Of a DNA stretch of 64,000 bases, positions 43,676 through 43,840 are shown one piece after another (the first letter of the stretch is position 1; each line of letters begins with the position of its first letter). The stretch lies in the NCBI GenBank assembly GCA_964016885.1, contig OZ024740.1, positions 292,640,001 to 292,704,000 of the forward strand, written 5' to 3'. The notes under the pieces were generated by a model. The model ran no database searches and was not told the DNA's origin. It saw nothing but the letters and a program-made list of their open reading frames with translations. The translations under genes and the position numbers were made by a program. The stretch comes from Eledone cirrhosa (Eukaryota).

Positions 43676-43840
43676 ATGTCTATAAGAACTGTCTTCCAAT
43701 CAGCTGCTAATTGGACATCTAATAACAAGTTTGTTTCCTTCGTAATCATATCATGTGTTACATACTTAGGAACGTATCCATTAAAGACACCAAAACTTAA
43801 AACATCTGAAGAAAGAATTGGAAAAGCTTTACAAAAATAA
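43676..43840 (+). CDS. 54-aa microprotein, putative uMKKS2 homolog (exon 43664-43843)
   Basis: CAG acceptor, CAAACATG start, MSIRTVFQSAANWTSNNKFVSFVIISCVTYLGTYPLKTPKLKTSEERIGKALQK*, donor CAG|GTTTGT 3 nt after the stop. Confidence 0.75.
   Translation: MSIRTVFQSAANWTSNNKFVSFVIISCVTYLGTYPLKTPKLKTSEERIGKALQK

Follow-up and report, generated by a model that had tools for sequence, protein, structure and literature searches.

An octopus microprotein encoded ahead of an MKKS-like gene as a candidate invertebrate counterpart of human uMKKS2

The 64,000-nucleotide stretch of Eledone cirrhosa DNA analyzed here (the window) encodes two small ORFs and a chaperonin gene in the same orientation: ORF1 (starting at 37896), ORF2 (43676), and the chaperonin coding sequence (ATG at 45400, with an acceptor 16 nt before it). 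We take the chaperonin gene to be MKKS from its uORF context and exon layout, Pfam by itself giving only the chaperonin family. We propose that ORF2, a 54-aa microprotein with a single transmembrane (TM) segment, is the second cistron of an ORF1-ORF2-MKKS unit and the invertebrate counterpart of human uMKKS2, a true ortholog with a mitochondrial role; we assign this reading a probability of roughly 0.6. Its link to the human peptide is partly supported, by position and by weak sequence likeness. The features of the locus are as follows.

37889..38106, plus strand: predicted ORF1 exon, with a strong acceptor; the donor is most likely AAA/gtgagt at 38107
37896..38075, plus strand: ORF1, a uMKKS1-like single-TM microprotein of 59 aa (P0002), by its likeness to Atlas clusters and to a Nucella protein
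43664..43843, plus strand: predicted exon enclosing all of ORF2, from splice-site sequence (start 43658 with an alternative acceptor); contig L003, described below, has the same exon layout
43676..43840, plus strand: ORF2, a single-TM microprotein of 54 aa (P0001), with the TM segment at about residues 19-34 and a conserved tail, P-x3-P-x3-T-x2-E-R
45384..46405, plus strand: first coding exon of the MKKS/BBS6-like gene (Pfam Cpn60_TCP1, E 2.4e-33; splice sites)
47217..47395, plus strand: MKKS coding exon 2, open-frame model
48712..48822, plus strand: MKKS coding exon 3, open-frame model; acceptors that lengthen the exon are possible too, and the choice shown gives a four-exon model of 588 aa
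50042..50512, plus strand: final MKKS coding exon including the stop, open-frame model

Results

ORF2 and its predicted exon

Translation of 43676-43840 (+) gives 54 aa followed by a TAA stop. The peptide contains W-x3-N (W13, N17), the hydrophobic run FVSFVIISCVTY, LGTYPL, and a basic tail; it has eight K and R residues and two D and E residues, and its Kyte-Doolittle profile peaks at a mean of 1.92 in the 15-residue window starting at residue 19. On the 5' side of the exon, tandem AG acceptors ending at 43657 and 43663 follow a C/T tract, which is weaker than that of ORF1; on the 3' side, a CAG/gtttgt donor opens at 43844, the stop codon lying 3 nt before it. The initial annotation had described just such an ORF, with W-x3-N, a hydrophobic run, LGTYPL, a Lys-rich tail, and a donor 3 nt past the stop, and both translation and splice-site reading confirmed it. 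The ATGs of ORF1, ORF2, and MKKS all have A at -3 (3/3), that of ORF2 in its own CAAAC-ATG context.

Single-protein searches found one copy of ORF1 and one of ORF2 in the animal's own genome, the sole other match to ORF2 being at E 2.67. Neither exact sequence is present in a collection of ~15 billion proteins, in keeping with the earlier description of ORF2 as unannotated. A word-index homolog search and Pfam returned no match to either peptide, and the PDB gave only three chance matches to ORF1, at E ~1. In the Atlas, ORF1 matched a chordate cluster named 'uncharacterized LOC128706665 homolog' at 0.93 and an arthropod cluster at 0.94, the ORF1-type clusters being 58-64 aa long; for ORF2, there was nothing at or above 0.9 (best 0.83, leads only) and no chordate uMKKS2 cluster. 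Four sequencing runs, all from one study, contained the MKKS exon, with no RNA run among those listed. An improvised exon filter, which required an acceptor, a donor, a purine at -3, and hydrophobicity, passed ORF1 alone and failed ORF2, and thus gives ORF2 no support. That ORF2 is a true microprotein with an exon to itself is nevertheless supported by the splice-site sequence, by conservation in L003, and by the existence of a conserved family, and we consider it almost certain that 43676-43840 is a real coding microprotein exon.

A family of single-TM microproteins

ORF2 belongs to a small, unnamed, conserved family of single-TM peptides without a Pfam match. A phmmer search with ORF2 against 1.84 billion representatives (E<=1e-3) yielded 10 matches (best E 4e-6), nine of them peptides or peptide ends bearing the ORF2 motif and one a chance match, and a family profile search gave 14 matches among 387 candidates. 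Across the 16 rows of alignment A2, five positions do not vary (N17, Y30, P39, E46, and R47), and four more (K18, S21, P35, and T43) are almost fixed. All 15 members of alignment A4 have a basic N-terminal segment (net charge +2 to +8) and a 16-residue hydrophobic stretch (TM mean hydropathy 1.5-2.4). P0010 and P0013, which have long N extensions, were excluded from all alignments, and P0008 and P0019 from A4. Two candidates were rejected as members: P0005, a 989-aa protein with a carbohydrate-binding domain, is a chance match, and P0015, a 364-aa ABC ATPase with a TOBE domain, is listed in the cluster of the 57-aa P0011 peptide through an artefact of the collection.

An HMM built without P0001 scored that peptide at 74.2 bits, a value reached by none of 1000 shuffles but partly circular, because the members had been found with P0001. 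Among the window's 1424 six-frame segments, the same HMM scored one (74.2 bits; next 8.8). Pfam returned no real match for the 15 members (two weak matches, E 0.08-0.1, in one of them), and specifically neither UPF0640 nor DUF4516, the Sloth1/Sloth2 families, in any of the 15; the family profile had no match in the PDB. No named vertebrate protein appeared in the word-index search, the profile search, or the cluster members inspected. A single member carries a species name: KAL8619581.1 of the gastropod Nucella lapillus (125 aa), whose N half matches ORF1 at 44% and whose C half matches ORF2 at 44%, in the same order as in the window.

Relation to human uMKKS2

Human uMKKS2 is the 50-aa product of MKKS uORF2 (UniProt V9GZ13; PMC11837024). 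Its sequence is given in Supplementary Data 1 of PMC7066179, and the human stretch quoted in the initial annotation agrees with it. The spacing match proposed there holds as well: W-x3-N and LGTY-x-L align with the human peptide in an ungapped register, with 8 of 24 residues identical by eye. ORF2 follows a uMKKS1-type ORF as the second small ORF and lies directly before the MKKS coding sequence on the same strand, and like its human counterpart it is about 50 aa long (54 aa), with one TM segment by hydropathy and a basic tail. Human uMKKS2 differs from the ORF2 family in having H at the invariant Y30 and in lacking K18, S21, P35, and the P39/T43/E46/R47 tail.

Comparisons with the human sequence were BLOSUM62 sums made by hand and chosen after looking, for five of the 19 ORF2-family and two ORF1-type sequences; computation was confined to the nulls. 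So scored, the window peptide reaches 26 (p ~0.04-0.10), as do 118 of 3000 background and 130 of 3000 ORF1-composition random sequences. An LGTY match no better than shuffled controls had been named beforehand as one refuting condition, and the window peptide alone does not exceed chance: 481 of 5000 architecture-preserving shuffles (a locally shuffled TM peptide) score as well. In the same register, its relatives score at least 40 (P0007; 4/5000, p ~0.001), 32 (P0011; 99/5000), 28 (P0012; 239/5000), and 20 (P0004; 2186/5000, p 0.44), and all five hand-scored members share the ungapped W-x3-N-x12-[HY]-x-[GA]-[TS]-Y register with human uMKKS2. For the ORF1-type sequences the scores are 34 (P0002; 51/5000) and, for the Nucella N half, 40 ungapped (1/5000) or ~52 with one gap (0/5000).

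The identification of ORF2 as uMKKS2-like survives in part: its position as the second ORF before MKKS supports it, whereas the octopus-human sequence match is not significant by itself and the invariant P39, E46, and R47 have no human counterpart. Because human uMKKS2 matches ORF1-type peptides too, has His at Tyr30, and is without the P39/E46/R47 tail, it appears to sit between the two invertebrate families. It is either the ortholog of ORF2, both cistrons then being ancient paralogs, or a later duplicate of uMKKS1.

The second of these options keeps the tricistronic layout and denies the orthology: vertebrate uMKKS2 would be a younger tandem duplicate of uMKKS1 in the second slot, and the ORF2 family a separate, undescribed one that was lost or replaced in vertebrates. 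We consider this unlikely, although it is the alternative that fares best. The human peptide scores higher against ORF1-type sequences (34 for P0002, and 40 or ~52 for the Nucella ORF1 half) than against P0001 (26), but P0007 and P0011, with at least 40 and 32, weigh on the other side, and all of these sums were made by hand and chosen after looking. The H-x-G of human uMKKS2 is that of ORF1, as opposed to Y30 in 16/16 rows of A2, and P39/E46/R47 are missing from it; the spacing from W-x3-N to LGTY, however, is ungapped against ORF2 only, ORF1 needing a gap of one or two residues. The lack of direct similarity between the ORF1 and ORF2 families also counts for this alternative, and the shared locus position of ORF2 and uMKKS2 counts against it.

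The initial annotation had also hinted that the two cistrons are ancient paralogs. ORF1 belongs with human uMKKS1 (micro-MKKS63; Q9HB66; LOC128706665), which resembles ORF2 in size class and in its single TM segment ending in [HY]-x-G-x-Y; between ORF1-type peptides and ORF2, there is no measurable sequence similarity. BLASTP found no match between ORF1 and ORF2, their ungapped score of 19 was equaled by 1598 of 3000 shuffles, and the ORF2-family HMM gave ORF1 -0.5 bits (285 of 1000 shuffles as good); the best cross-family score was 28. The hhalign comparison of the uMKKS1-type and uMKKS2-type (ORF1 and ORF2) profiles that had been suggested as a check likewise failed to join them (probability <=0.3%), though with low power because the ORF1 profile comprised one or two sequences. 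Direct tests of the paralogy were thus negative, and what keeps it alive is a route that the initial annotation had not stated, namely that human uMKKS2 matches ORF1-type peptides and may, judging from these scores, bridge the two families.

Conserved order and predicted splicing of the locus

The synteny seen in Nucella and in the metagenome contig L003 is evidence independent of the family search. L003 was the one confirmed locus among 262 pattern matches in a search with alignment A3 (5 sequences). It carries a 58-aa family member on its own exon, with an acceptor 1 nt before the ATG and a TCAG/gtaagt donor 4 nt past the stop; a 161-nt intron (466-626) and an acceptor follow, the latter 16 nt ahead of the ATG of a Cpn60_TCP1 ORF that is 37% identical to the window MKKS (E 1e-32). 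The stop-to-donor distance is 3 nt in the window and 4 nt in L003, and the acceptor-to-MKKS-ATG distance 16 nt in both. Splicing would leave a spacer from the ORF2 stop to the MKKS ATG of 19 nt in the window and 20 nt (counted) in L003; stop read-through into MKKS was rejected because both are out of frame. Linkage of ORF2 to MKKS was found in two genomes only, and ORF1, ORF2, and MKKS together in this window only. We judge it very probable that ORF2 is part of a conserved MKKS polycistron.

ORF1 and ORF2 could instead be two exons of a single two-TM protein of ~110-125 aa, as the 125-aa Nucella model would have it. A donor inside ORF1, AAA/gtaatt at 38049, would join ORF2 in frame to give a 109-111-aa two-TM fusion like that model, and such a fusion is possible as a minor isoform. 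As the principal arrangement it is improbable. The internal Met of KAL8619581.1 coincides exactly with the start of five stand-alone relatives (P0003, P0014, P0018, P0020, and P0021), for which reason we take that protein to be a gene model that merges the two cistrons of one transcript, and consider a real fusion less likely. The Nucella model also extends beyond the position of the window's 38049 donor, which means that the two animals do not share the join. In addition, ORF1-type clusters stop at 58-64 aa, ORF2 has its CAAAC-ATG context, and a GTGAGT donor follows the ORF1 stop, though a crude count of U1 matches ties both donors at 6/9.

Equally doubtful is the view that ORF2 is a monocistronic neighbor, or is carried mainly on short polyadenylated isoforms, without a regulatory tie to MKKS. 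Human short isoforms are described as bearing uORFs only (PMC12573267, PMC13577902), and the intron after the ORF2 exon holds ATTAAA at 44166 and AATAAA at 45068, candidate signals for a short isoform that, like the human ones, would carry the microproteins only; the former sits in a repeat-like stretch. On the other hand, two distant animals have kept both the donor 3-4 nt past the stop and the 16-nt distance from acceptor to MKKS ATG, a layout that makes sense only if the exons are joined. That ORF2 is a chance ORF or a dead intronic pseudo-exon, as might be supposed in a window with 120 ATG ORFs of 45-70 aa, 53 of them hydrophobic, is largely refuted already by its family motif, which is intact and matched at E 4e-6 among 1.84 billion sequences, its place as the one scoring segment of 1424 (74.2 bits, against 8.8 for the next), and the conserved synteny.

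Other features of the window

Head-to-head with the MKKS locus lies a gene that we take from its first exon to be aspartylglucosaminidase-like; this first exon is signal-peptide-like, and the arrangement suggests a shared promoter near 32.4-32.6 kb.

32246-32362, 22440-22589, 20026-20133, 7465-7602, and 3820-3921, minus strand: exons of an Asparaginase_2 (PF01112) family gene, running away from the MKKS locus

Its first intron contains about four head-to-tail copies of a ~62-base unit (31090-31350). Within the intron that immediately precedes the ORF2 exon, broken ORF pieces at 42640-43200 are presumably a decayed mariner/Tc1-type transposase, and we take 1948-2883 (-) to be another transposase-like frame. 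Frames at 50829-53337 (+), 10066-13325 (-), and 61969-63597 (-) are presumably LINE-type reverse-transcriptase/endonuclease frames, the first beginning ~300 bases past the MKKS stop.

Discussion

In the model we prefer, in which ORF2 is the second cistron ahead of MKKS, the ORF1, ORF2, and MKKS exons would be spliced into one tricistronic mRNA. The ORF2 peptide would cross a mitochondrial membrane once, its basic N-terminal segment being short and its moderately hydrophobic helix, 16 residues long, ending in Y-x-[GA]-[TS]-[YIF]-P. Its soluble tail would bind a partner through the invariant P, E, and R residues; the likeliest setting is assembly of the respiratory chain, where ORF1 would act beside it. 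The A at -3 shared by the three ATGs, and an ORF2 stop that precedes the MKKS ATG by 19 nt in a different frame, lead us to expect that most ribosomes make the microproteins and that MKKS is translated at a low level by leaky scanning or re-initiation; ORF2 would also damp MKKS translation.

The localization and partner suggested here are carried over by analogy from human work, mostly on uMKKS1. Both human MKKS uORF peptides are reported to localize to mitochondria (PMC7066179; PMC11837024), and the uORFs, called conserved across mammals in a review, to repress MKKS translation (PMC11837024), in the case of one uORF partly in a sequence-dependent manner (PMC7530721). The human 63-aa peptide is described as the main product of the MKKS locus, its loss lowering respiration (PMC13577902), and its predicted partner is a component or an assembly factor of complex IV (10.1101/2024.10.01.615885); the same source equates LOC128706665 with the human 5'-UTR product called 'alternative protein MKKS'. 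The human short isoforms that carry only uORFs are attributed to alternative polyadenylation (PMC12573267) and are reported also in PMC13577902.

A working model for the ORF1-ORF2 pair, by analogy and not by membership, is the Drosophila sloth1-sloth2 bicistron (SMIM4/UQCC5 and BRAWNIN/UQCC6), in which one mRNA encodes two short single-TM mitochondrial peptides, proposed to be distant paralogs, that act as a stoichiometric pair (PMC9681215). The ORF2 family differs in being without UPF0640 and DUF4516, and the window ORFs in standing each on its own exon with a third, large cistron after them. MIURF-MIEF1, PYURF-PIGY, and STREMI-SLC35A4 (PMC13303939) likewise pair a functional uORF-encoded mitochondrial microprotein with an unrelated main ORF that it regulates downstream; they are bicistronic, unlike the MKKS locus, and have no family match to ORF2.

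The literature searched, with subscription papers mostly outside its reach, described neither a uMKKS2 in any invertebrate nor this layout in animals other than vertebrates, and the supplement to PMC7530721, which gives taxonomic ranges for MKKS uORFs, may record non-vertebrate hits. The review PMC11837024, in its available sections, describes the MKKS uORF peptides as mammalian, and the function-level accounts consulted concern uMKKS1 only. The available portions of PMC13303939, PMC4568590, PMC3951408, PMC8448870, 10.1101/2021.11.18.468957, and 10.1101/2025.07.27.667088 have no bearing on invertebrates.

A fuller scenario can be put forward tentatively, although all of its parts are rather unlikely to hold together. 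The three-cistron organization of the MKKS locus would date back at least to the protostome-deuterostome split; ORF1 and ORF2 would be ancient tandem paralogs, too diverged in molluscs for a direct match and bridged by human uMKKS2; the two peptides would act as a Sloth1/2-like pair in the assembly of the respiratory chain, probably of complex IV; and MKKS/BBS6 would be a low-level passenger, tied to them through the conserved ~20-nt stop-to-ATG spacer.

The locus exposes a failure of annotation, in that the family has no Pfam entry, the octopus peptide is absent from ~15 billion proteins, and the sole species-named member is modeled as fused to ORF1. Should the ORF2 family instead be a separate one that was replaced in vertebrates, it would constitute an undescribed microprotein family. 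If, as we favor, a second-slot invertebrate family with a kept exon layout holds, the three-cistron design would be more than 500 million years old. The ORF2 family offers invariant residues for mutation, and its conservation suggests that the microproteins may be core products of this ciliopathy locus.
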